Shown: positions 6,356 through 64,000 of the stretch, one piece after another
How the letters are laid out: each line of letters starts with the position of its first letter
Position numbering within the stretch: position 1 is the first letter of the stretch
Source of the DNA: Chloroflexota bacterium
GTDB taxonomy: Bacteria > Chloroflexota > Anaerolineae > JACRMK01
Direction: 5' to 3'
NCBI GenBank assembly: GCA_016235055.1
Contig: JACRMK010000046.1
Coordinates: forward strand, 34,958 to 98,957
DNA length: 64,000 bases
The notes under the pieces: model-generated
The model's database searches: none
Seen by the model: the letters and a program-made list of their open reading frames with translations, nothing else
What the model was told of the DNA's origin: nothing
Program-made: the position numbers and the translations under genes

Positions 6356-6523
6356 CCACGGCATGACGGCGTGACAGGATGACAGGCTGGCCGGGTGACA
6401 CGGTGACACGATGAAGAGATGACGGGATAACACGATGACAAGGGGCAGCTTGGGGCGCACTATGAGCGCAGATTCGCGTTATTCGCGGACAGGTTGTTTT
6501 TAAGAAGTCCGACGGTTTGACGG

Positions 6524-11889: not shown

Positions 11890-11941
11890 AGACAGATGTT
11901 ACCGATAAAGCGGCGCAGGCGCAAGCGAGTTGTGCGGTAGG

Positions 11942-12192
11942 AGGTATATTCAGTTCTGGGGCGCAACCAATACGGAGCAAGAACATAGTAGCTCGTTATG
12001 TCCGCGTAGGGGCGCATGGCCATGCGCCCGCATCCAGAGGTGCTGCCCCCTGGATTCCCGCGGTGCTCTGCGGCCTTCATCCTGTGCCCGCGCCTGCGGC
12101 GCGGAGCGGGGCGAAGCCCCGCTGCACAGGACATCGCGCAGAGCGTTAACCGCCCGCTGGCCCGAAGCCAGCGGGAAACGCGCGGGAGTGAC
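11942..12192. repeat. Composite intergenic repeat, family 4 (GGTATATTCAGTTCTGGGGCGCAACC module plus GTAGGGGCGC hairpins)
   Basis: Modules recur at about 31255-31370 (inverted) and 55057-55220; several perfect short palindromes. Confidence 0.55.
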
Positions 12193-21739: not shown

Positions 21740-21955
21740 CAGAGCACGCAAAGAGCGCAAAGAAAAGCTTTGTTGACCGTGAATAACGCGAATTGGCGCT
21801 AGTCGAACGCTAACCGCAGAGAACGCAGAGGAAAACAAGACCAACCGCAAAGCACGCAAAGAGCGCAAAGGAGAACCCTGCTTTCGATTGGCGTCGATTC
21901 GCGTTATTCGCGGATAGAGAGCTTTTCTTTGCGGTCTTTGCGCCCTTTGCGGTTC
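21740..21955. repeat. MITE-like element, family 2 (nested inverted repeats; inner GAATAACGCGAAT / ATTCGCGTTATTC)
   Basis: Outer inverted repeat CGCAAAGAGCGCAAAG / CTTTGCGCCCTTTGCG and inner CCGCGAATAACGCGAAT-type termini; related copy at 56831-56974 and solo ends near 2712, 6465, 24808. Confidence 0.6.
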
Positions 21956-24765: not shown

Positions 24766-24839
24766 AACTTTTCACCGCAGAGAGCGCAGCGAGAACCTTT
24801 GTATCCGCGAATAACGCGAATCGGCGCGAATAGAACAAC

Positions 24840-31037: not shown

Positions 31038-31254
31038 ACGACGCCCGTCGGCGCAATCGAAATTATACCCGCGCTATGGATGACGGGCAACTGGCGACCC
31101 GGCAACGGGTATACCGACAAACTGTCGGGGACTCAATCGGTCGTCATGCCGGAATGGCGGATTGGTCAGCCGTGCGGCCCCGACACTTTTGCGGTATACC
31201 CTTTCAATTGGGTGCATTTCGGATTGGGGCCGGGCGCATGCAACTCAACGAGGC

Positions 31255-31370
31255 GTCACTCCCGCGGAAGCGGGAGTCCAGGGACAACACCGCTGGATGC
31301 CCGCGCTGGTCGGCGGCGAGCCACCGTGGTCTCATACCGTATTGGTTGCGCCCCGGAACTGAAAATACCC
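31255..31370. repeat. Intergenic repeat, family 4 partial copy
   Basis: CGTATTGGTTGCGCCCCGGAACTGAAAATACC is the reverse complement of the module at 11942; CACTCCCGCGGAAGCGGGAGTC hairpin. Confidence 0.5.
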
Positions 31371-31467
31371 CCTTTCAACGTCTCAAGCATAGCGAACTGC
31401 CTGCGCAGGGGAGCGATTTGCGAGCTCATCGGGTCGGTATTCATAGGGCGTGCCGGGCGCGCCCGGA

Positions 31468-42535: not shown

Positions 42536-43507
42536 TCAATAGTTCTTCCGCAAGTCCAGCCCCGCGTAGAGGCCGGCGACCTGCTCGGCATAGCCGTTGA
42601 ACGGCTGCGTCGTCCGCCGGCGCAATTCGCCGATGCGCCGCTCGCTGCCCTGCGACCAGCGCGGGTGATTGACCTCCGGATTCACATTAGCGTAGAAGCC
42701 ATATTCATTCGAGGCAATCGTGCTCCACATCGTCTTCGGCTGCGTGTCGGTTAACTCGATCTTGACGACCGCCTTGATCGACTTGAACCCGTACTTCCAC
42801 GGCACGACCAGCCGGATGCCGCCGCCGTTCGCGGCCGGTAGTTCGCCGCCGTACAGGCCGGTCGCCAGCAGCGTCAGGTCGTTCATCGCCTCGTCGATAC
42901 GCAGCCCTTCCTGGTACGGCCAGGGGTAGAACGGCGAGCGCTGGCCGGGGAAGTCGTCCGGCTTGAAGAGCGTCTCGAAGCGCACATATTTCGCGGCTGC
43001 CGTCGGTTCGACCGCCTTCAGCAGCTTCGCGAGCGGGAAGCCGACCCACGGGATGACCATGCTCCACGCTTCGACGCAGCGCAGGCGGTAGATGCGCTCC
43101 TCGGGCTGGAAGCGCTTGATCATCTCCTCGACGGCGTACTTGCCCGGCTTGCCTACCAGGCCCGACACCTGCACGTCCCACGGCGACGTCTTGAAGTTGG
43201 CGGCGCGCGGCGCAACGCCCTCTTTCTCTTCCGTGAACTCGTAGTAGTTGTTGTAGTGCGTGATGTCCTGGTACGACGTCGCCGGATCGCCCAGTTCGTC
43301 CTTGCGCGCGGACGCGCCCGGCTGGGCCGCAGGCGGCGCCGTGGCCGAAGGCGCCGGCTGCGCGTCGTTGCCTGCCAGCGGACCGCACGCCGCAAGTGCC
43401 ATGCTGCCCGCCACCACGCCGGTGGCCTTGATAAACTCGCGCCGCGAGAGGTACACCGCCTTCGGCGTGACCTCGGATTCCGCGATGCGCGGATAACGGC
43501 TCTTCAT
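42536..43507 (-). CDS. msrP: Protein-methionine-sulfoxide reductase catalytic subunit MsrP (YedY-like molybdopterin oxidoreductase)
   Basis: Twin-arginine signal (SRREFIK), sulfite-oxidase-fold motifs (ITHYNNYYEF, RLRCVEAW, GGGIRLVVPWKYGFKSIKAV). Confidence 0.9.
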   Translation of the reverse strand: MKSRYPRIAESEVTPKAVYLSRREFIKATGVVAGSMALAACGPLAGNDAQPAPSATAPPAAQPGASARKDELGDPATSYQDITHYNNYYEFTEEKEGVAPRAANFKTSPWDVQVSGLVGKPGKYAVEEMIKRFQPEERIYRLRCVEAWSMVIPWVGFPLAKLLKAVEPTAAAKYVRFETLFKPDDFPGQRSPFYPWPYQEGLRIDEAMNDLTLLATGLYGGELPAANGGGIRLVVPWKYGFKSIKAVVKIELTDTQPKTMWSTIASNEYGFYANVNPEVNHPRWSQGSERRIGELRRRTTQPFNGYAEQVAGLYAGLDLRKNY

Positions 43508-43531
43508 ACAGCTCTCCCTCCCTGGGTGTGT

Positions 43532-46259: not shown

Positions 46260-47024
46260 ATGCGCAAAGAGATAGCAACCGTCGTGTTGGGATTAACAAT
46301 GATACTCGCGGCTTGCGGGCCGACCCCCACACCCGCCGCCATGATGCAAGCCGCGATGCCAACGCCTGACGCAATGATGGCCAAGCCGACGCCCGATGCG
46401 ATGATGGCCAAGCCGACGCCCGATGCCATGATGGCCAAGCCGACGCCCGACGCCATGATGGCGCGCCCAACACCCGACGCGATGATGGCGCACCCAACAC
46501 CCGACGCCATGATGGCGCACCCAACACCCGACGCGATGATGGCGCATTCGACCCCGGATGCCATGATGCAAGCCCCGGCCTGGTTTGGCGCATCGCTGAC
46601 CGATGTGCGCACCGGTCAGACGTTCTCGCTCAACGGCTTCAAAGGCAAGGTGGTGCTGGTCGAAACGATGGCGCAATGGTGTCCGAGTTGCCGCACGCAG
46701 CAGACGCAGGTGAAAGACCTGCGCGCGATGTTTGCCGGGCGCGATGATCTGGTGACGATCGCGCTCGACGTGGATCCGAATGAGCAGGCCGCCGACCTGA
46801 AGAAATACGTGCAGGCCAACGGCTTCGAAGGGTTCTACGGCATCGCGCCCGCCGCCGTGGCGCGCGAGATCGGCAATCTTTATGGCGCGCAATTCCTGAA
46901 TCCGCCGTCCACGCCGATCCTGATTGTGGACCGCCACGGCCTGGCGCATCCCCTGCCGTTCGGCATCAAGAGCGCACGCGATCTGGCGAGCGCCATCGAG
47001 CCGTACCTCAAGGACGCCATGTAA
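46260..47024 (+). CDS. TlpA/ResA-like thioredoxin-fold lipoprotein with tandem nonapeptide linker
   Basis: Lipobox ILAAC; seven to eight repeats of A[KRH]PTPDAMM; redox motif WCPSC; AAGGAG upstream. Confidence 0.85.
   Translation: MRKEIATVVLGLTMILAACGPTPTPAAMMQAAMPTPDAMMAKPTPDAMMAKPTPDAMMAKPTPDAMMARPTPDAMMAHPTPDAMMAHPTPDAMMAHSTPDAMMQAPAWFGASLTDVRTGQTFSLNGFKGKVVLVETMAQWCPSCRTQQTQVKDLRAMFAGRDDLVTIALDVDPNEQAADLKKYVQANGFEGFYGIAPAAVAREIGNLYGAQFLNPPSTPILIVDRHGLAHPLPFGIKSARDLASAIEPYLKDAM
46341..46560 (+). repeat. 27-bp tandem repeat array inside the tlpA-like gene (coding, in frame)
   Basis: GCCAAGCCGACGCCCGATGCGATGATG-type unit repeated about 8 times with third-position and K/R/H variation. Confidence 0.8.
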
Positions 47025-48006: not shown

Positions 48007-48174
48007 TCAAAGCAAAACCGTATGCACGCGCCCGGGCGCGCCCGGCGGCCCGCAGGCCGCGATGGCCATACTGCCCGCCACGACGCCGGCGGCCATGATG
48101 AATGCGCGCCGCGAGAGGTACGCCGCCTTCGGCGTGACCTCGGATTCCGCGATGCGCGGATAGCGATTGTTCAT
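48007..48174 (-). pseudogene. Truncated duplicate of the msrP 5' end (RBS plus twin-arginine signal peptide only)
   Basis: About 110 bp near 48060-48175 is roughly 90% identical to msrP 43395-43505 including the GGGAGG ribosome-binding region; reads MNNRYPRIAESEVTPKAAYLSRRAFIMAAGVVAGSMAIAACGP then terminates; end coordinate approximate. Confidence 0.5.
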
Positions 48175-48338
48175 ATTTTTCCCTCCCCTGGATATACGCG
48201 CAGGCCGCCCTGGTCCATTGCCTCCGGCTGTGGCAGCGTGCTGTTCATCTTACCGCCCTTGCCCGAATTGCGTGAACGGCCGCCGGCAACAAAAAGCCCC
48301 GCGTAAGCGCGGGGCGTGTCTGGCTGACCCGCTGCGGG

Positions 48339-55056: not shown

Positions 55057-55220
55057 GGTGCATTTCACTTCTGGGGCGGCTAATGGGCCAACAAGCCGTC
55101 ATGCCGTTGCCCGCTGGCCCCTTGCCAGCGGGCGCTTGACGGTCAGCGGCGAGAAGCCGCTGACCAGCGCGGGCATCCAGAGGTGTTGCCCCTGGACTCC
55201 CGCTTTCGCGGGAGTGACGA
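55057..55220. repeat. Composite intergenic repeat, family 4 copy
   Basis: GGTGCATTTCACTTCTGGGGCGGC module; GCCCGCTGGCCCCTTGCCAGCGGGC and TCCCGCTTTCGCGGGA hairpins matching modules at 12030-12192. Confidence 0.55.
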
Positions 55221-56830: not shown

Positions 56831-56974
56831 CCACGAAGGGACACGAAGGAACACCAAGAACACCTTTATCCGCGAATAACGCGAATGAACGCGAATAGAG
56901 CCCACAAACTCCAGAACTGATTGGCCTCGATTCGCGTTATTCGCGGATCGCTTTTTATTTGTGTTCCTTCGTGG
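56831..56974. repeat. MITE-like element, family 2 copy (nested inverted repeats)
   Basis: Outer CCACGAAGGGACACGAAGGAACAC / GTGTTCCTTCGTGG; inner CCGCGAATAACGCGAAT / ATTCGCGTTATTCGCGG. Confidence 0.6.
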
Positions 56975-56982
56975 ACGGTGTG

Positions 56983-58008
56983 TTAGATCATCGCGCGCGC
57001 GCGGCGGGCGAGGGCCGGCACGCCGGTATCCAGCATCGCGAAGAACGGGTCGTCGGTCGTGCCGAGCTGATGGCGCTTATAGCTGCCTTCCAGCAGGATC
57101 GCCAGCTTCCAGATCGCCAGCACGATGTAGAAATTGAGGTTGGCGACCTTGCGGCCGCTCAGTTCCTCGTAGCGCGCGGCGACCTCCGCGCGGCCCGGGA
57201 AGCCGCCCGAGGCCGTTACATCGCCCATGTCGTCGGGCAGCGGCGTTGTTGGCGCCTCGCCCGGCTCGCGCCAGAACGACAGCAGGTAGCCCAGGTCGGC
57301 CAGCGGATCGCCGAGCGTGGACATCTCCCAGTCGAGCACCGCCAGCAGCTTGACCGGCGGCCGGCTGGCGTAGATCGCGTTGTCGAGCCGGAAGTCGCCG
57401 TGCACGATCGTCGCGGCAGGCGATTCCGGGATGTGGCCTTGCAGCCACGCGCTCACGGCGTCGAGGTCGGGCAGGTCGCGGGTACGCGCGCCGTCCAGTT
57501 GGCCGACCCAGCGCTTGACCTGCCGCGCGATGTAGCCATCGGGCTTGCCCAGCGTGCCGAGGCCGGCCGCCGTGTAGTCCACCGTGTGCAGGGCAACCAG
57601 CGCGCGAATCAACTCATCGGCGAGCGCGGCGCGTTCCGCCGGGCCGCTCAGAGCTGCCGGCAGCTTGTTGCGCACGACCGCGCCCTCGATGCGCTGCATC
57701 AGGTAGAACGGCGCGCCGATGACCGCCGTGTCTTCGCACAACAGGATCGGTTGCGGGACCGGAAAGTGCGCCGCCGTCAGCCCCGCGATGACGCGGTACT
57801 CGCGCGCCACGTCGTGCGCGGTCGGCAGGTACGGCGGGCGCGGCGGGCGGCGCAGGACGTACTGCTCCGCGCCGCGCGAGACGAAGAACGTCAGGTTCGA
57901 GTGTCCCGCATCGATCCGTTCCGCGCGGACCGGCGCCTCGCTCGGCGACAGCGCGCGGTCGAGGTACGCTTGCAGGTTCGCTTCATCCACGAGCGGGGGC
58001 AGGGTCAT
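56983..58008 (-). CDS. Phosphotransferase-family protein (APH-like kinase fold)
   Basis: Brenner motif HGDFRLDN and downstream D-W-E metal-binding region (VLDWEMS). Confidence 0.8.
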   Translation of the reverse strand: MTLPPLVDEANLQAYLDRALSPSEAPVRAERIDAGHSNLTFFVSRGAEQYVLRRPPRPPYLPTAHDVAREYRVIAGLTAAHFPVPQPILLCEDTAVIGAPFYLMQRIEGAVVRNKLPAALSGPAERAALADELIRALVALHTVDYTAAGLGTLGKPDGYIARQVKRWVGQLDGARTRDLPDLDAVSAWLQGHIPESPAATIVHGDFRLDNAIYASRPPVKLLAVLDWEMSTLGDPLADLGYLLSFWREPGEAPTTPLPDDMGDVTASGGFPGRAEVAARYEELSGRKVANLNFYIVLAIWKLAILLEGSYKRHQLGTTDDPFFAMLDTGVPALARRARAMI

Positions 58009-58347
58009 GGCTGGTCATCCTCACAACACAATGGGTCGATGCGGACGCAAGCCATTATAGCACGGCCGAATGAGCGCGGCGCTAGTTTGCTTCTGCGCGT
58101 TATCGCGGTTGCAGCTGGAGTAGATGGATGGTTTGCCGGCACGGAAGGTCATGGGGCAGGTCGAATTGCACTCCCTTTGATCCCAGATGAGGTTTGCTGG
58201 TCCGGGCTACTGCGCTTGCTTCATGGATTGAGGGCGCATATAATCCCATTGACCCCGACGGTTTACGAGCATCGTTGGTGGTAGCTGCGGGACGGATGAC
58301 CTGCGCACCAGGCATAGTGGCCGGTTCGCAAAAGGAGACGCGACTCC

Positions 58348-58686
58348 ATGAACATAACGGCGCAAGGAAGCCGCACGGCGTCAACACGTGGACGGTCCGA
58401 TCTGAACCGATTCAGACGAATCCTGAAGCGGCACATGCCTGATTTGGAGAACCGCTACAACGTCCGGTCGCTAGGCATCTTCGGATCGTATGTTAGGGGC
58501 GAACAGCGGAAGCGTAGTGATCTGGACGTGCTGGTCGAATTCGCCAAATCGCCCGACCTGTTCGAGTTCACGGCATTGGCCGACGACCTCGAGCACCTGT
58601 TGGGCGTTAAGGTGGATTTGGTCAGCCGGAACGGCCTGCAAGGCCGCTTGGCAGAGCGCATCTTAAGCGAGGTTGTGCCGGTATGA
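58348..58686 (+). CDS. Nucleotidyltransferase MntA-like antitoxin
   Basis: LGIFGSYVRGE...SDLDVLV motif; AAGGAG upstream. Confidence 0.8.
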   Translation: MNITAQGSRTASTRGRSDLNRFRRILKRHMPDLENRYNVRSLGIFGSYVRGEQRKRSDLDVLVEFAKSPDLFEFTALADDLEHLLGVKVDLVSRNGLQGRLAERILSEVVPV

Positions 58687-59069
58687 GTGCCGCGCGCCGC
58701 CATCTCGACTACCTGCGGGACATCGCCGACATGATGGGCACCGTTGTCGAGTTGACCGATGCGATGACGTTTGAGCAGTTTGCGACTGACAAACGCACGG
58801 CTTTGGCCGTCAGAAAGGCAATCGAGATCATCGGCGAAGCCGCCAAGCATCTGCCACCGTCCTTCCGCGATCGGCACGATGCAATCCCCTGGAAACAAAT
58901 GGCTGGCATGCGCGATCGGTTAATCCACGCTTACTGGGGCATCAACATTGACATTTTGTGGGCAACGGCAACCGAAGTGATTCCCAGCCTGCGCCCGCGC
59001 ATCGCACTAGTCCTGGAACAGGAGCTGGCACGCGAACAGCGCGCGCGGCCGGCGCCAGATGATACGTGA
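58683..59069 (+). CDS. HepT-like (DUF86) HEPN toxin
   Basis: R-x4-H-x-Y HEPN motif (RDRLIHAY); ATGA overlap with mntA-like gene. Confidence 0.8.
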   Translation: MSAARRHLDYLRDIADMMGTVVELTDAMTFEQFATDKRTALAVRKAIEIIGEAAKHLPPSFRDRHDAIPWKQMAGMRDRLIHAYWGINIDILWATATEVIPSLRPRIALVLEQELAREQRARPAPDDT

Positions 59070-59186
59070 GTCACATCCGTTCCAGCCGGTCTTATTTATC
59101 TCGCCTCGCTTGACTTTCCCCCGCCAAATCGAGTACGCTTGCAACGCAACACCGTCCACAACCATGACCTGGTAAGGAGGCATCCC

Positions 59187-60785
59187 ATGACCACGTTGTA
59201 TGCCGAGAAGCAGGCTGCGTTCGATTGGATCGAAGCCAACCGAGCGCGCCTTTCCGGCTTCTGCGAGCAGATCTGGAACTATGCGGAGACGGCGTTCCGC
59301 GAGTACAAGTCCGCGCGCGCGTATTGCGATCTGCTGCGCGCCGAAGGGTTCACCGTCGAGGAAGGCTCCGCCGAGATGCCGACGGCGTTCGTCGCGACGT
59401 ACGGCAACGGCGGGCCGGTGCTGGCGACGTTCTCCGAATACGACGCCGTGCCGGAGAACTCGCAGGAGCGCGTGCCGTACCCGTCGCCGCGCGCCGGCCT
59501 GAACCGCTGGGCGGCCGGGCACACCGACCCGCACTCGTCGCTCGGCACGAGCGCGCTGATCGGTGCGCTGGCCGCCAAGGCGATGATGGTCAAATACGGG
59601 CTGCACGGCACGCTCAAGCTGTTCGGCGAGCCGGCGGAGAAGGTCTGCGGTTCCAAGCCGGTACACGCCGCCAAGGGGTATTACGACGGGCTCGACGCGG
59701 CGGTCGTCTATCACCCCAATGCCAGCAACTCCGTAGTGTGGGAAACACACAGCGGCTCGTACTGGAGCGCGGCGTTCGTCTTTGAGTGCATCGATCCGGA
59801 GGAGTGGATCGACCAGCGCCTGCTGCCGAACACGAGCACCTCGCACGCGGCGGCGCGCTGTCCGGCGGCGATCGACGCGCTGTGCCTGATGTATACGCTG
59901 ACCAAGTACAGCAAGGAGGCGATGTTCCCGCACACCGGCACCTGGACGCTCAACGAGAACATCATGGTTGGCGGGCAGTGCACCTCGGACAACCTGCCGC
60001 CGCGCCTGGCGGTCATCCAGTACTCGTGGCGCTCGCCGACGCTCGACATCCAGGAGCGCGTATTCCAGGTGCTGGCGCAGAACGCGCGGCAGGTCGCCGG
60101 CGCGACCGGCTGCGTCGCCTCGGTGCGCTGGATCACGAAGACGCGCGTCGGCCTGCCGAACCTGGCGATCTCCGACCTGGCCTACCGCAACCTGGAACTG
60201 GTCGGCGCGCCCCAGTTTGGAGACGAGGCGCGCACCTTCGCCCGCGCGATCCAGAAGAATCTCGGCTTCGAGCCGATGGACGACCCGTTCATTGCCGACA
60301 ACCAGACGCTGACGCCGCCGCCCGAACTGGAAGCGCGCGTGCGCCAGGGCCTGCCGCCGTGGCAGCTCAACTTCACGTCGGATGATTATGTGGAATACAC
60401 CTGGCACGCGCCGACCGTGCGGCTCTACACGGCGCGGCCGCGCCTGAAGGCGCCCAAGCCCGGTTACACGTACCCGGCATGGGTGAACAACGCGATGGGC
60501 GGCGTGCCGGCCTGCATCGATCCCGGCATGTTCGTCGCGGGCAAGACGATCGCCGCGACGATGCTCGATCTGCTCAAGTCCCCGGACGAGCTCGCCAAAG
60601 CGCAAGCCGAGTTCCGCGAGCGGACGGGTGGCGGCGTGGGCGGCAGCCAGTGGGTCGCGCCGCTGTTGGCGCGCGATTTCCCGCCGCCGGTCGAATTACG
60701 CTGGCCGGAGTACGTGCAGACGCCGCGCGGCGAGGAGTGGTGGGTGCCGACGGTGACGCACGAATCGGCCTACGTGAAGCTGTAG
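59187..60785 (+). CDS. M20-family amidohydrolase (aminobenzoyl-glutamate-utilization AbgB-like)
   Basis: 532 aa from internal ATG with AAGGAGG upstream; metal-ligand regions (GHTDPHS, EPAEK) typical of M20 peptidases. Confidence 0.8.
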   Translation: MTTLYAEKQAAFDWIEANRARLSGFCEQIWNYAETAFREYKSARAYCDLLRAEGFTVEEGSAEMPTAFVATYGNGGPVLATFSEYDAVPENSQERVPYPSPRAGLNRWAAGHTDPHSSLGTSALIGALAAKAMMVKYGLHGTLKLFGEPAEKVCGSKPVHAAKGYYDGLDAAVVYHPNASNSVVWETHSGSYWSAAFVFECIDPEEWIDQRLLPNTSTSHAAARCPAAIDALCLMYTLTKYSKEAMFPHTGTWTLNENIMVGGQCTSDNLPPRLAVIQYSWRSPTLDIQERVFQVLAQNARQVAGATGCVASVRWITKTRVGLPNLAISDLAYRNLELVGAPQFGDEARTFARAIQKNLGFEPMDDPFIADNQTLTPPPELEARVRQGLPPWQLNFTSDDYVEYTWHAPTVRLYTARPRLKAPKPGYTYPAWVNNAMGGVPACIDPGMFVAGKTIAATMLDLLKSPDELAKAQAEFRERTGGGVGGSQWVAPLLARDFPPPVELRWPEYVQTPRGEEWWVPTVTHESAYVKL

Positions 60786-60835
60786 CCAAACGCGACGCAC
60801 AAACGGAAGCGGGACAGGCATGATGCCTGTCCCGC
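60705..60835 (+). repeat. Direct repeat, left copy (3' end of M20 gene plus terminator)
   Basis: 131 bp; identical to 62092-62222 except 2 substitutions. Confidence 0.85.
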
Positions 60836-60841
60836 TTTTTT
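60811..60841 (+). terminator. Rho-independent terminator of M20 gene
   Basis: GGGACAGGC-atga-GCCTGTCCC followed by GCTTTTTTG. Confidence 0.7.
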
Positions 60842-60945
60842 GTTGTGCGTGCTATCCCTCAGCGCGCCCGGCTGGACGAAACTGGCTTGAATCCCCGTTT
60901 GCGGCAATCCGCACGAGGAATGTCAAACAGCATCAGTACGGAGAA

Positions 60946-61080
60946 AATGGGGGTACGACGGCGTGTGCCCATTGCCAACGCAGTGGGCAACAAGTCAAGG
61001 ACGGAATCAATGCGTTTGGCAGCCTGCAGTATCGATGCAAAGGCTGTTGCCCTTCTGAACTTTTTCACTTAACACGGTAG
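60946..61080 (+). pseudogene. Possible IS1595-family transposase N-terminal zinc-ribbon remnant
   Basis: ...NGGTTACAHCQRSGQQVKDGINAFGSLQYRCKGCCPSELFHLTR then stop; pattern NG..C.HC...(13)...YRCK.C...F resembles the Zn_Tnp_IS1595 ribbon; no DDE domain follows. Confidence 0.3.
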
Positions 61081-61086
61081 CAATTG

Positions 61087-61743
61087 TCATCTTCCAAGCA
61101 ATTCTGCATTCGACTGGAATAGAGGAATCTGTGTACTTTCAGTATCATCGCAGTCCGGTGAGAACTTGTATTTCACGTTGAAACTCATTTCTGAATAGCT
61201 GTAGGCTTGATACCCTTTAAAATGGGAATTGGAAAGCTGGGTAAAGCGATTCTCAATAGGTTTCCATACGGCGGTGCTCCAATATGAAACCGGATATCGT
61301 ATGCACGACCTCTCGTGAGCCCCACCATCTTGAACATCCAAATCGACAAAAACCAAGAATCGATCTGAACCGAACTTCACATACTCGACCAAGTAGTAGC
61401 CCTTGCCATGATACCAAACGTCTCGCCTGACCCCGACGTTTATCGAACCAAGCGCTTGTGCCTTGGTGATAAACGCCGCGACCCCTGAGGCATCTTGCAC
61501 GGCCGCAGTCGCCCAGAAGGTATTTTCGCGTTGAGCTTTACGCTGTGACTCAATTGTGCTGACAGCTCGATCATCAAGTGTACCATATGAAATCGCATTC
61601 GACGCGCCTTGGTAAACTGCGACGACGGCAGAGAATCCGACGAGGATGATCAGGAGGCCGATTAATCCCCTCAGCAAATTGCCAAAACATCCCGACTCGA
61701 TCAAAATACCCAAGCCAACAGCTCGAAAGAAGTTATCGCTCAT
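61087..61743 (-). CDS. Hypothetical membrane-anchored protein (cargo gene B)
   Basis: 218-aa ORF in AT-richer DNA where stop-free frames of this length are unlikely by chance; two N-terminal hydrophobic helices; ATGA overlap with upstream ORF. Confidence 0.55.
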   Translation of the reverse strand: MSDNFFRAVGLGILIESGCFGNLLRGLIGLLIILVGFSAVVAVYQGASNAISYGTLDDRAVSTIESQRKAQRENTFWATAAVQDASGVAAFITKAQALGSINVGVRRDVWYHGKGYYLVEYVKFGSDRFLVFVDLDVQDGGAHERSCIRYPVSYWSTAVWKPIENRFTQLSNSHFKGYQAYSYSEMSFNVKYKFSPDCDDTESTQIPLFQSNAELLGR

Positions 61744-62054
61744 ATTCCGCCTGCGTCTTTCTCTTCGGTGACAACTGGAGGAAAACAGCGCTTTGCACTA
61801 GAAAGCATGTCTCGCCGTGTGTACCGCATGTATCCAATCTTCAAGTATATGCACTTTGCATTGTGGCGACCATCATGATAGCGGTGTGAGTTTCCAGGCT
61901 TGGGCAATGGCGAACGAAGATGGAAATAGCATCGAACTTCGCTCGCGTATTTTCTTCTGAACTCAGCCCACGGTTGGTTTGTCCCATAAACACAGTCATT
62001 ATACAACTTTGTGCTGCGTTTCTGGTTTATCGGCAATGGGTGTAGCAACGACAT
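61740..62054 (-). CDS. Hypothetical Cys/His-rich small protein (cargo gene A)
   Basis: 104 aa; 4 Cys and 6 His could form a metal site; no obvious RBS. Confidence 0.45.
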   Translation of the reverse strand: MSLLHPLPINQKRSTKLYNDCVYGTNQPWAEFRRKYASEVRCYFHLRSPLPKPGNSHRYHDGRHNAKCIYLKIGYMRYTRRDMLSSAKRCFPPVVTEEKDAGGI

Positions 62055-62091
62055 ACACTTGATTCCATCGATACCGTGCGGTTTGCTCTGG

Positions 62092-62222
62092 CCGGAATAC
62101 GTGCAGACGCCGCGCGGCGAGGAGTGGTGGGTGCCGACGGTGACGCACGAATCGGCCTACGTGAAGCTGTAGCCAAACGCGACGCACAAACGGAAGCGGG
62201 ACAGGCATCATGCCTGTCCCGC
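62092..62222 (+). repeat. Direct repeat, right copy (duplicate of M20 3' end plus terminator hairpin)
   Basis: Same 131 bp as 60705-60835 with G-to-A at position 6 and loop ATGA-to-ATCA; followed by TTCATTTTC. Confidence 0.85.
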
Positions 62223-62459
62223 TTCATTTTCACTCGGGCGCGGTATTCTGTTCGGACCCTATCTGGCTGCGTCGGGATCGCGTAGGGGCGCACCGACGTG
62301 TGCGCCCGCCTGGCACGCTGCGGGCCGACACGCAGGTCGGCCCCTACCACCGGCGCTTTGCGGGTGGCTTTGCCCAATTCGCACGCATGTTCTAAGTTTG
62401 TGCTATAATAGCGACGGGCACAGAACATTAGTTCTCACTACCGCTATAGGAGAATCGCG

Positions 62460-62733: not shown

Positions 62734-64000
62734 TTACGCCGGTCGCCAGCAGAGGTCCGGCTTGCGCGCTGCCGTCGCCTCGTCCAGCCGCGAGACCGGC
62801 GTGGTGTGCGGCGCAGAGCGCACGAGCTCGGGGTTCTCCTCGGCCTCGCGCGCGATCTGCAGCATCACCTCGCAGAAGCGGTCGATCGTCTCCTTGCTCT
62901 CCGTCTCGGTCGGCTCGACCATCAGCGCTTCCTCGACGACCAGCGGGAAGTAGACCGTCGGCGGGTGAATGCCGAAGTCGATCAGCCGCTTGGCGATGTC
63001 GAGCGTGCGCACGTTGTTCTTCGCCTGGCGCTTGCCGGAAAAGACGACCTCGTGGTAGCAGGTGCGGTCGAACGGCAGGTCGTACGCGCCCTTGAGGCGC
63101 TCCTTGATGTAGTTCGCGTTCAGCACGGCGATCTGGCTCACCTCGCGCAGGCCGTCCTCGCCGTGTGAGCGGATGTACGCGTAGCCGCGCACCAGGTTGG
63201 CGAAGTTGCCGTGGAACGCGCGCACCCGGCCGATCGACAGCGGCCGGTCGTTGTCGAGCGTGTAGCGGCCATCCTTGAATGCGACGACCGGCGCCGGCAG
63301 GAACGGCGCCAGCGCCTTGGAAACGCTTGTGCCGCACGCGCCCGGCCCGCCGCCGCCGTGCGGCACGCCGAACGTCTTGTGCAGGTTGTAGTGCAGGATG
63401 TCGAAGCCGACCTCGCCCGGCTTGCAGATGCCGAGCAGGGCGTTCATGTTCGCGCCGTCGCCGTACACCAGGCCGCCCGCCGCGTGCACCAGTCGATTGA
63501 TCTGCTCGATGTGCTGGTCGAAAAGGCCAACCGTCGACGGATTGGTGATCATCATGCCCGCGACCGTGTCGTCGAGCAGCGCCTTCAGCGCGTCCACGTC
63601 CACGTTGCCGTGGGCGTCCGCCTTGACGGTGACGACGCTGTAGCCGACCATCGCGGCGGTCGCCGGGTTGGTGCCGTGCGAGCTATCCGGCACGATAATT
63701 TTGGTGCGCTTCGTGTCGCCGCGCGACTTGTGATAGCCGTGGATCATCAGCACGCCGGTCAGTTCGCCGTGCGCGCCTGCCGCCGGCTGCAGCGTCGCGC
63801 CCGCGTGCCCTGCGATCTCGGCGAGCTGCTCCTGCAGTTCGTACATCATGCGCAGCGCGCCCTGCACGGTGCTCTCAGCCTGGTACGGGTGAATGCGCGC
63901 AAAGCCCGCCTGCCCGGCGATGACGTCGTTGATCTTCGGGTTGTACTTCATCGTGCACGAGCCGAGCGGATAGAACACGGTATCCACGCTGAAGTTCTTG
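62734..64000 (-). CDS. gcvPB: Glycine dehydrogenase (decarboxylating) subunit 2, GcvPB; 5' end lies beyond window
   Basis: PLP-enzyme motifs incl. [13 protein letters not shown] and LHKTF (Lys for PLP); reading frame stays open to the window edge. Confidence 0.9.

Follow-up and report, generated by a model that had tools for sequence, protein, structure and literature searches.

A GC-poor islet bracketed by a duplicated M20 gene end in a Chloroflexota genome, and its possible origin from a phage-like integrative element

The e14 element of Escherichia coli K-12 resides in icd, where the element supplies the 3′ end of the gene and a 163-bp pseudo-icd fragment is left at its far end (PMC6379469, PMC13626634). 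Another class of comparable structures, the cis-mobilisable elements (CIMEs), is defined, in the wording quoted in PMC5704250, as segments that are flanked by direct repeats and carry no recombination or transfer genes. Here we describe a locus that resembles both. It lies on contig JACRMK010000046.1 of a Chloroflexi metagenome-assembled genome (GCA_016235055.1), from which a stretch of 64,000 nucleotides was analysed (hereafter the window, whose positions are used throughout). At this locus, the 3′ end of a gene for an AbgB-like M20 amidohydrolase occurs twice together with its terminator, as a direct repeat on either side of a GC-poor insert that holds a single conserved gene, ORF218 (an open reading frame (ORF) of 218 codons). 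We interpret the insert, with modest confidence, as what is left of a phage-like integrative element.

The two copies of the repeat are 137 bp long and offset by 1387 bp, and they differ at two positions, which corresponds to 98.5% identity (Table 1). The initial annotation of this DNA, made from its letters alone, was right about the duplication and the number of mismatches, but it gave a length of 131 bp with coordinates a few bases off, and it counted 26 duplicated codons where we count 27. Each copy begins with the third base of codon 505 and continues through codons 506–532 and the TAG stop, then through 20 nt of spacer to a hairpin; 84 nt of M20 coding sequence are repeated together with a terminator hairpin whose 15-bp stem is perfect. 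The first mismatch (60710 G versus 62097 A) is synonymous, exchanging GAG for GAA, and the second (60822 G versus 62209 C) falls on the central base of the hairpin loop. The edges of the repeat are sharp, with the in-register identity dropping from 99% inside to 23–37% just outside both ends. Degenerate homology continuing past these edges was considered and rejected, as only 11 of 27 positions matched (p ~0.06). For the 32-nt core of the repeat, the chance expectation was 0.00 in 100 shuffles. The stems of the two hairpins are perfectly palindromic and the G/C exchange in the loop is their sole difference, which makes the hairpins exact reverse complements of one another; we treat this exchange as a neutral loop mutation, although a recombinase site of 13-7-13 architecture was considered as another conceivable reading.

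What follows the hairpin differs between the two copies. On the left, ACGCACAA within the repeat pairs with TTGTGCGT, the first bases past the repeat, in a flank that starts with TTTTGTTGTGCGT, and this pairing adds an outer stem to the terminator. The minimum free energy of the left terminator is −40.3 kcal/mol (z −8.5), compared with −31.5 kcal/mol for the right one, which has no outer stem. The left copy also overlaps and completes the target gene. The M20 ORF has its full length of 532 aa, as in its homologues (525–536 aa; named aminobenzoyl-glutamate utilization protein B by JGI), and its last 27 codons fall within the left repeat. The encoded protein is identical to NCBI MBI5878177.1, and the GC content at third codon positions (GC3) of the gene is 0.91.

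The DNA between the repeats is foreign in composition. Other 1250-bp windows in the 64 kb have a mean GC content of 0.656 with a standard deviation of 0.025 and a minimum of 0.585, so that the insert, at 0.490, is the strongest compositional outlier, and ORF218 has a GC3 of 0.51 compared with ~0.9 in host genes. The earlier description of the insert as GC-poor is therefore confirmed, and its size, first put at ~1256 bp, is refined to 1250 bp. The drop in GC content does not coincide with the edge of the repeat: positions 60838–60919 have a GC content of 0.60, and the first 13 of these bases pair with ACGCACAA of the repeat and so complete the terminator stem.

ORF218 corresponds to NCBI MBI5878178.1, the gene directly consecutive to that of the M20 protein on a contig of 139,767 bp. 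An exhaustive HMMER search of 1.84 billion representatives returned seven relatives, placing ORF218 in a very rare family of 8 representatives; the closest relatives share 50% identity with it across almost the entire length (E 6e-46 and 2e-38). When 5.8 billion proteins were searched with a word index, only ORF218 itself was matched, and scans of IMG/VR and the JGI metagenomes for the family found nothing. The family is characterized by an N-terminal membrane helix, two invariant cysteines and an NYGTLD motif that is conserved in most members. As for genomic settings, one relative (P0007) is found two genes away from the gene for a terminase large subunit (phrog_38, 5e-100). Another (P0006), from an Anaerolineae metagenome-assembled genome, lies 3.6 kb from a tyrosine integrase gene (phrog_1, 2e-34) and also has an HNH gene and genes of phage families as neighbours. 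A third (P0008) adjoins an HNH endonuclease gene, a fourth (P0002) is located within a low-GC islet, and a fifth (P0003) is found in an island with a GC content of 0.37–0.44, which immediately follows a tRNA-Asn gene with its terminator and contrasts with a host GC content of 0.6–0.8. Because of these settings, the cargo represented by ORF218 is assigned to phage-like or integrative elements of Chloroflexota.

The P0003 locus, which belongs to an unrelated high-GC genome, shows a further feature at positions 1930–2090 of its own sequence. The 3′ end of tRNA-Asn, CAAATCCTCGGCGAGGAGC, is repeated there 87 bp downstream, at 17 of 19 bases, just ahead of the island; the pair looks like a pair of attachment (att) sites or the scar of a lost element. 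The P0003 gene is located ~290 bp beyond this att-like copy and points away from it. ORF218 is similarly placed, 344 bp from the right repeat and reading away from the repeat.

Given that the source is a metagenome-assembled genome, we wondered whether the junctions are present in the raw data. Independent Logan k-mer contigs of three runs (SRR12113407, SRR12113394 and SRR12113397) match positions 60808–62127 at 100% identity, a range that covers the insert and the distinguishing parts of both junctions. Both junctions therefore exist in the raw data. A fourth contig derives from the left flank and stops at 60740, exactly 30 nt beyond the left single-nucleotide polymorphism (SNP), as expected at a repeat. 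The insert contigs are 1.2–1.3 kb long and those of the chromosomal flanks in the same runs are 1.1–3.9 kb; these comparable lengths argue for an abundance of the insert similar to that of the chromosome.

Table 1. Positions of the features at the M20 gene end and within the insert, in window coordinates
Feature	Position	Strand	Description
AbgB-like M20 amidohydrolase gene, 532 aa, intact	59187–60785	+	TIGR01891 amidohydrolase (1e-30) and Pfam Peptidase_M20
Left repeat copy (attL-like)	60701–60837		M20 3′ end, stop, spacer and hairpin 60806–60837 (15-bp stem, 3-nt loop)
Extended terminator, left copy only	60795–60850	+	8-bp outer stem, then T-run
Insert, 1250 bp	60838–62087		GC 0.490; first 82 bp 0.60 (host-like), remainder 0.48–0.50
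Possible IS1-type transposase stump	60920–61060	+	ATG at 60920; zinc ribbon C-x2-C-x19-C-x2-C in another frame
ORF218, sole real cargo gene	61087–61743	−	N-terminal membrane helix, long helix, C-terminal beta-sandwich (two invariant cysteines)
104-aa ORF	61740–62054	−	Unsupported
Stretch upstream of ORF218, 344 bp	61744–62087		Presumed promoter location
Right repeat copy (attR-like)	62088–62224		Displaced M20 pseudo-3′ end 62088–62172 and second hairpin 62193–62224

Apart from ORF218, the insert contains little that can be recognized. The zinc-ribbon remnant noted in the initial annotation is present (CAHCQRSGQQVKDGINAFGSLQYRCKGC), in a reading that ends after ~35 residues, and its cysteine spacing is one that we take to be that of InsA of the insertion sequence (IS) IS1. 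Its similarity to transposases is weak, with matches to positions 1–27 of NCBIfam transpos_IS1 at E 0.17 and to the PHROG 1191 transposase at E 0.034. When the plasmid and phage collections were searched by tblastn with this peptide, one weak match was obtained, to a haloarchaeal plasmid (E 0.03). The BLASTN comparison of the insert that the initial annotation had suggested was run against the same collections and gave no DNA match, and tblastn added nothing beyond the weak zinc-ribbon match. Neither the insert nor the repeat nor the zinc-ribbon peptide recurs elsewhere in the window. The two ORFs that had been listed as unknown fared differently: the one of 218 aa is a real conserved gene, but for the one of 104 aa no homologue, matching family or tblastn hit was found; it shows no similarity to the neighbours of ORF218 homologues and is not called as a gene by NCBI. 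A first impression that it might be a DUF488 fragment was not borne out.

Two ordinary kinds of mobile DNA were considered for the insert and rejected. An insertion sequence or transposon does not agree with the ends of the insert, which carry no convincing terminal inverted repeats, with a duplication of 137 bp rather than 2–15 bp, or with the lack of an intact transposase. An integron gene cassette is not supported, because the repeat consists of the M20 coding end and a perfect terminator hairpin, in which inspection revealed no imperfect attC palindrome with R/L boxes, and because no integron integrase is found nearby. The best inverted pair at this locus is 12 nt long with one mismatch, GCAATCCGCACG at 60904–60915 and CGTGCGGTTTGC at 62075–62086, for which the chance expectation is ~0.08. 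The left arm is found 66 bp into the insert, at the drop in GC content and 4 nt before the zinc-ribbon ATG, and the right arm 1 nt ahead of the right repeat; the pair could be a product of chance or the ends of an older transposon-like unit.

For the origin of the insert, we somewhat favour a decayed remnant of a phage-like integrative element or prophage, without an integrase and flanked by att sites, of the CIME type. The left copy of the repeat makes the gene whole and the right copy is left over as a pseudo-3′ end, which is the geometry of a crossover between a circle and the chromosome. A circular phage-like element would have carried its own copy of the last ~137 bp of the M20 gene with the terminator, and a Campbell-type single crossover between this copy and the chromosomal one would have kept the host gene intact by joining its 5′ part to the left repeat and a complete terminator, while the second gene end was displaced to the far side. 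An incoming element that brought a full gene end as a replacement should yield just such a complete and stronger left terminator. The crossover was presumably made by a recombinase, with the repeat copies serving as functional att sites, and the element would once have been larger. An internal deletion, possibly tied to the IS1-type element beside the left repeat, would then have removed the recombinase and nearly everything else, leaving one att-proximal accessory gene, ORF218, and both copies of the repeat; the IS-like stump may mark the place where the rest was deleted. Because the foreign composition is unchanged and the repeats are near-identical, the evidence points to a recent insertion. 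The initial annotation had proposed site-specific integration at a gene 3′ end or a duplicative insertion. Of the former proposal, the architecture and the foreign origin stand as observations, and the mechanism of recombination is a reconstruction that draws indirect support from the family context of ORF218.

Several results weigh against this reconstruction. No integrase, excisionase or recognisable pseudogene of either was found in the insert or among the genes between 44 and 64 kb with Pfam, NCBIfam and PHROG, and a Pfam search of all frames of the insert, in which stop codons were masked, remained without a match up to E 10, in agreement with the earlier statement that integrase and intact transposase are absent. 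Neither an attP-bearing phage nor an empty site nor a second occupied site was found in IMG/VR, the JGI metagenomes, the GTDB genomes or the plasmid and phage collections. Exact-match scans for the repeat in the JGI metagenomes and IMG/VR returned nothing, an exact-protein look-up of the M20 protein and the downstream ORFs returned no record, and no viral contigs with an M20 relative were found. The nearest M20 relative in the scan of GTDB genomes is 78% identical and non-syntenic, with different downstream genes, and the search of 5.8 billion proteins contained none above 78% apart from this genome itself. With the nearest relative at only this distance, no relative bearing an integrase, an attP or an empty site was to be found. 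A direct duplication of the 3′ end was seen in none of eight homologous M20 loci, and the site does not appear as a recurrent hot spot. In addition, an identity of 98.5% over 137 bp that include a non-coding spacer exceeds what selection on an att site would need and fits plain homologous recombination or duplication equally well. The exact retention of both att copies with nearly all of the interior lost calls for a fortunate internal deletion, and the identification of the IS is weak (E 0.03–0.17).

Circles that insert into a shared segment duplicate that segment. It is possible, although we think it unlikely, that a small circle had earlier captured the M20 gene end and terminator from a closely related strain, for example when an IS and adjoining DNA were excised by an illegitimate or IS-mediated event, and was integrated by RecA through homologous recombination, with no site-specific recombinase ever involved. 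Such a history would agree with the near-perfect identity, the sharp edges and the inclusion of the non-coding spacer in the repeat, as well as with the lack of an integrase. It is also suggested by the first 82 bp past the left repeat, whose host-like GC content and contribution to the complete terminator would be explained if repeat and flank had been captured as one host piece, and the possible IS1-type stump follows immediately. However, DNA from a near-identical donor strain should match downstream of the hairpin, where the observed identity is 27%; moreover, a segment of 137 bp is, by established knowledge, short for efficient RecA recombination, and the phage and integrase contexts of the ORF218 relatives fit an ancestor that bore an integrase better. 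Since no integrase and no empty site were found, site-specific and RecA-mediated integration of a circle are indistinguishable at this locus. A different departure from the favoured scheme, to which we give little credence, has two forms: the insert with one copy of the repeat, a unit of 1387 bp, may be a working one-gene satellite that is moved by an integrase acting in trans, from a helper phage or the host, or the insert may have entered by an unfamiliar mechanism that cuts at the foot of the terminator hairpin. If the satellite form were true, the unit would spread a phage-type membrane protein through excision and re-integration at the AbgB-like gene end.

The arrangement might instead have arisen in the assembly, if the shared 137 bp was traversed twice and thereby joined an uninterrupted chromosome with a separate 1387-bp circle or tandem, or with a strain variant. 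The data leave some room for this in that the genome is metagenome-assembled and the two SNPs are 112 bp apart: at k=31, the integrated phase (G...G, A...C) and the phase of an empty site plus circle (G...C, A...G) give identical unitigs, and by our reasoning any path that runs twice through the repeat forces the observed SNP pattern. We nevertheless regard such threading as very unlikely, as both junctions are matched at 100% identity in three runs, the insert assembles as well as its flanks (1.2–1.3 kb versus 1.1–3.9 kb) and so is no rare by-product, and a circle of only 1.39 kb that has no replication gene would be unable to maintain itself. If threading had nonetheless occurred, the molecule would still be a mobile unit bearing a gene end and the biology would be largely unchanged. 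Least credible of all is a very long target-site duplication, in which the strands were cut 137 bp apart (at 60700/60701 and, where the hairpin has its 3′ foot, at 60837/60838), a fragment of foreign DNA was ligated in, and the single-stranded gaps were filled by end-joining or an unfamiliar enzyme. This would account for the sharp edges, one of which lies exactly at the end of the hairpin stem, and for the lack of a recombinase. Against it, known transposases, to our knowledge, duplicate 2–15 bp of their target, which is established, and no terminal inverted repeats bound the insert. Furthermore, its first 13 bp complete the terminator stem with the repeat, a coincidence that we estimate at ~1 in 10,000 for a random end.

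The surroundings of the M20 gene were also inspected. The genes between 44 and 64 kb include a Tad pilus cluster, a Schlafen/AlbA_2 protein, an APH kinase, an MNT/HepT toxin-antitoxin pair, the M20 gene and GcvP2. The MNT/HepT pair (58348–58686 and 58683–59069), directly upstream of the M20 gene, coincides with a milder low-GC patch (58000–59100) with a GC content of 0.57–0.59, and HepT has a GC3 of 0.71. This second patch suggests that the neighbourhood acquired foreign DNA more than once. Between 58 and 64 kb, no Rfam family was matched at E below 0.89, and there is no tRNA at the site. ARAGORN called a 92-nt tRNA-Ala(GGC) at 63283–63374 on the minus strand, inside the coding sequence of GcvP2, which is probably a false positive.

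Elsewhere in the window, other repeats were observed. A small dispersed repeat around TCCGCGAATAACGCGAAT or its reverse complement occurs in intergenic DNA at 2709–2756, 6466–6501, 21759–21806, 21883–21942, 24776–24835 and 56852–56959; some copies form inverted pairs of ~60 nt, and the repeat may be a REP-like (repetitive extragenic palindromic) or MITE-like (miniature inverted-repeat transposable element) family of this genome. Two long-range inverted pairs join 31254–31317 with 55156–55219 (64 nt, 94% complementarity) and 11939–11995 with 31317–31373 (57 nt, 81% complementarity). A direct repeat of 134 nt with 87% identity (43375–43508 and 48042–48175), its copies 4.7 kb apart, flanks the region upstream of the Tad pilus genes. 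Finally, a 27-nt tandem repeat is present seven times at 46353–46568, encoding a nonapeptide rich in Pro, Thr, Asp, Ala and Met, within a thioredoxin/AhpC-like ORF (46260–47024).

The locus is a clean example of a known process and an ordinary kind of feature, and it leaves the current understanding unchanged. It would document that the end of an AbgB-like M20 gene serves as an attachment site in a lineage of uncultured Chloroflexi whose mobile elements have received little description, and it illustrates how far an element may decay with both repeat copies and one intact accessory gene kept. It also connects a very rare protein family without annotation, whose members are membrane-anchored beta-sandwich proteins, to phages and integrative elements of Chloroflexota. 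With its repeats intact, the islet might yet disappear through recombination or be mobilised if a matching integrase were supplied.

Among described systems, the closest parallel is e14 (and phage 21) in icd. There as here, an element sits in the 3′ end of a protein-coding gene and provides a replacement end, so that the enzyme stays intact and the displaced end becomes a pseudogene fragment; flanking repeats of which one completes the target gene, and foreign DNA between them, are found at the M20 locus as well. The duplications are of similar length, 163 bp in e14 and 137 bp here, and a further likeness is that one of the two differences in the M20 repeat is synonymous. In contrast, e14 is 15 kb long and has an integrase and SOS-inducible excision, whereas the present insert is 1.25 kb long with no recombinase gene beside the att-like repeat. 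The duplication here also extends past the stop codon through the whole terminator hairpin, and the host is a Chloroflexi metagenome-assembled genome with an AbgB-like M20 gene as the target. In the reduction of its content, the locus is closer to a CIME. By the definition as quoted in PMC5704250, both are short stretches of foreign DNA at a target gene's 3′ end that lie between direct repeats and lack genes for recombination or transfer, and at the M20 gene both repeat copies, as counterparts of attL and attR, are intact, with integration and transfer genes absent. CIMEs, however, were defined in Firmicutes, where a related integrative and conjugative element with the same att site is known and mobilisation in cis has been demonstrated; here no parent element or cognate integrase was found, and the cargo suggests a phage rather than a conjugative ancestor. 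The islands at tRNA ends, as at the P0003 locus, share with the M20 locus a low-GC island right after a gene terminator, a partial copy of the gene's 3′ end close by, and a gene of the ORF218 family ~300 bp from the att-like copy and reading away from it. They differ in that the target here is protein-coding and the repeat is 137 bp rather than 19 nt long, and the M20 locus shows its island from end to end, whereas at the P0003 locus the contig stops within the island.

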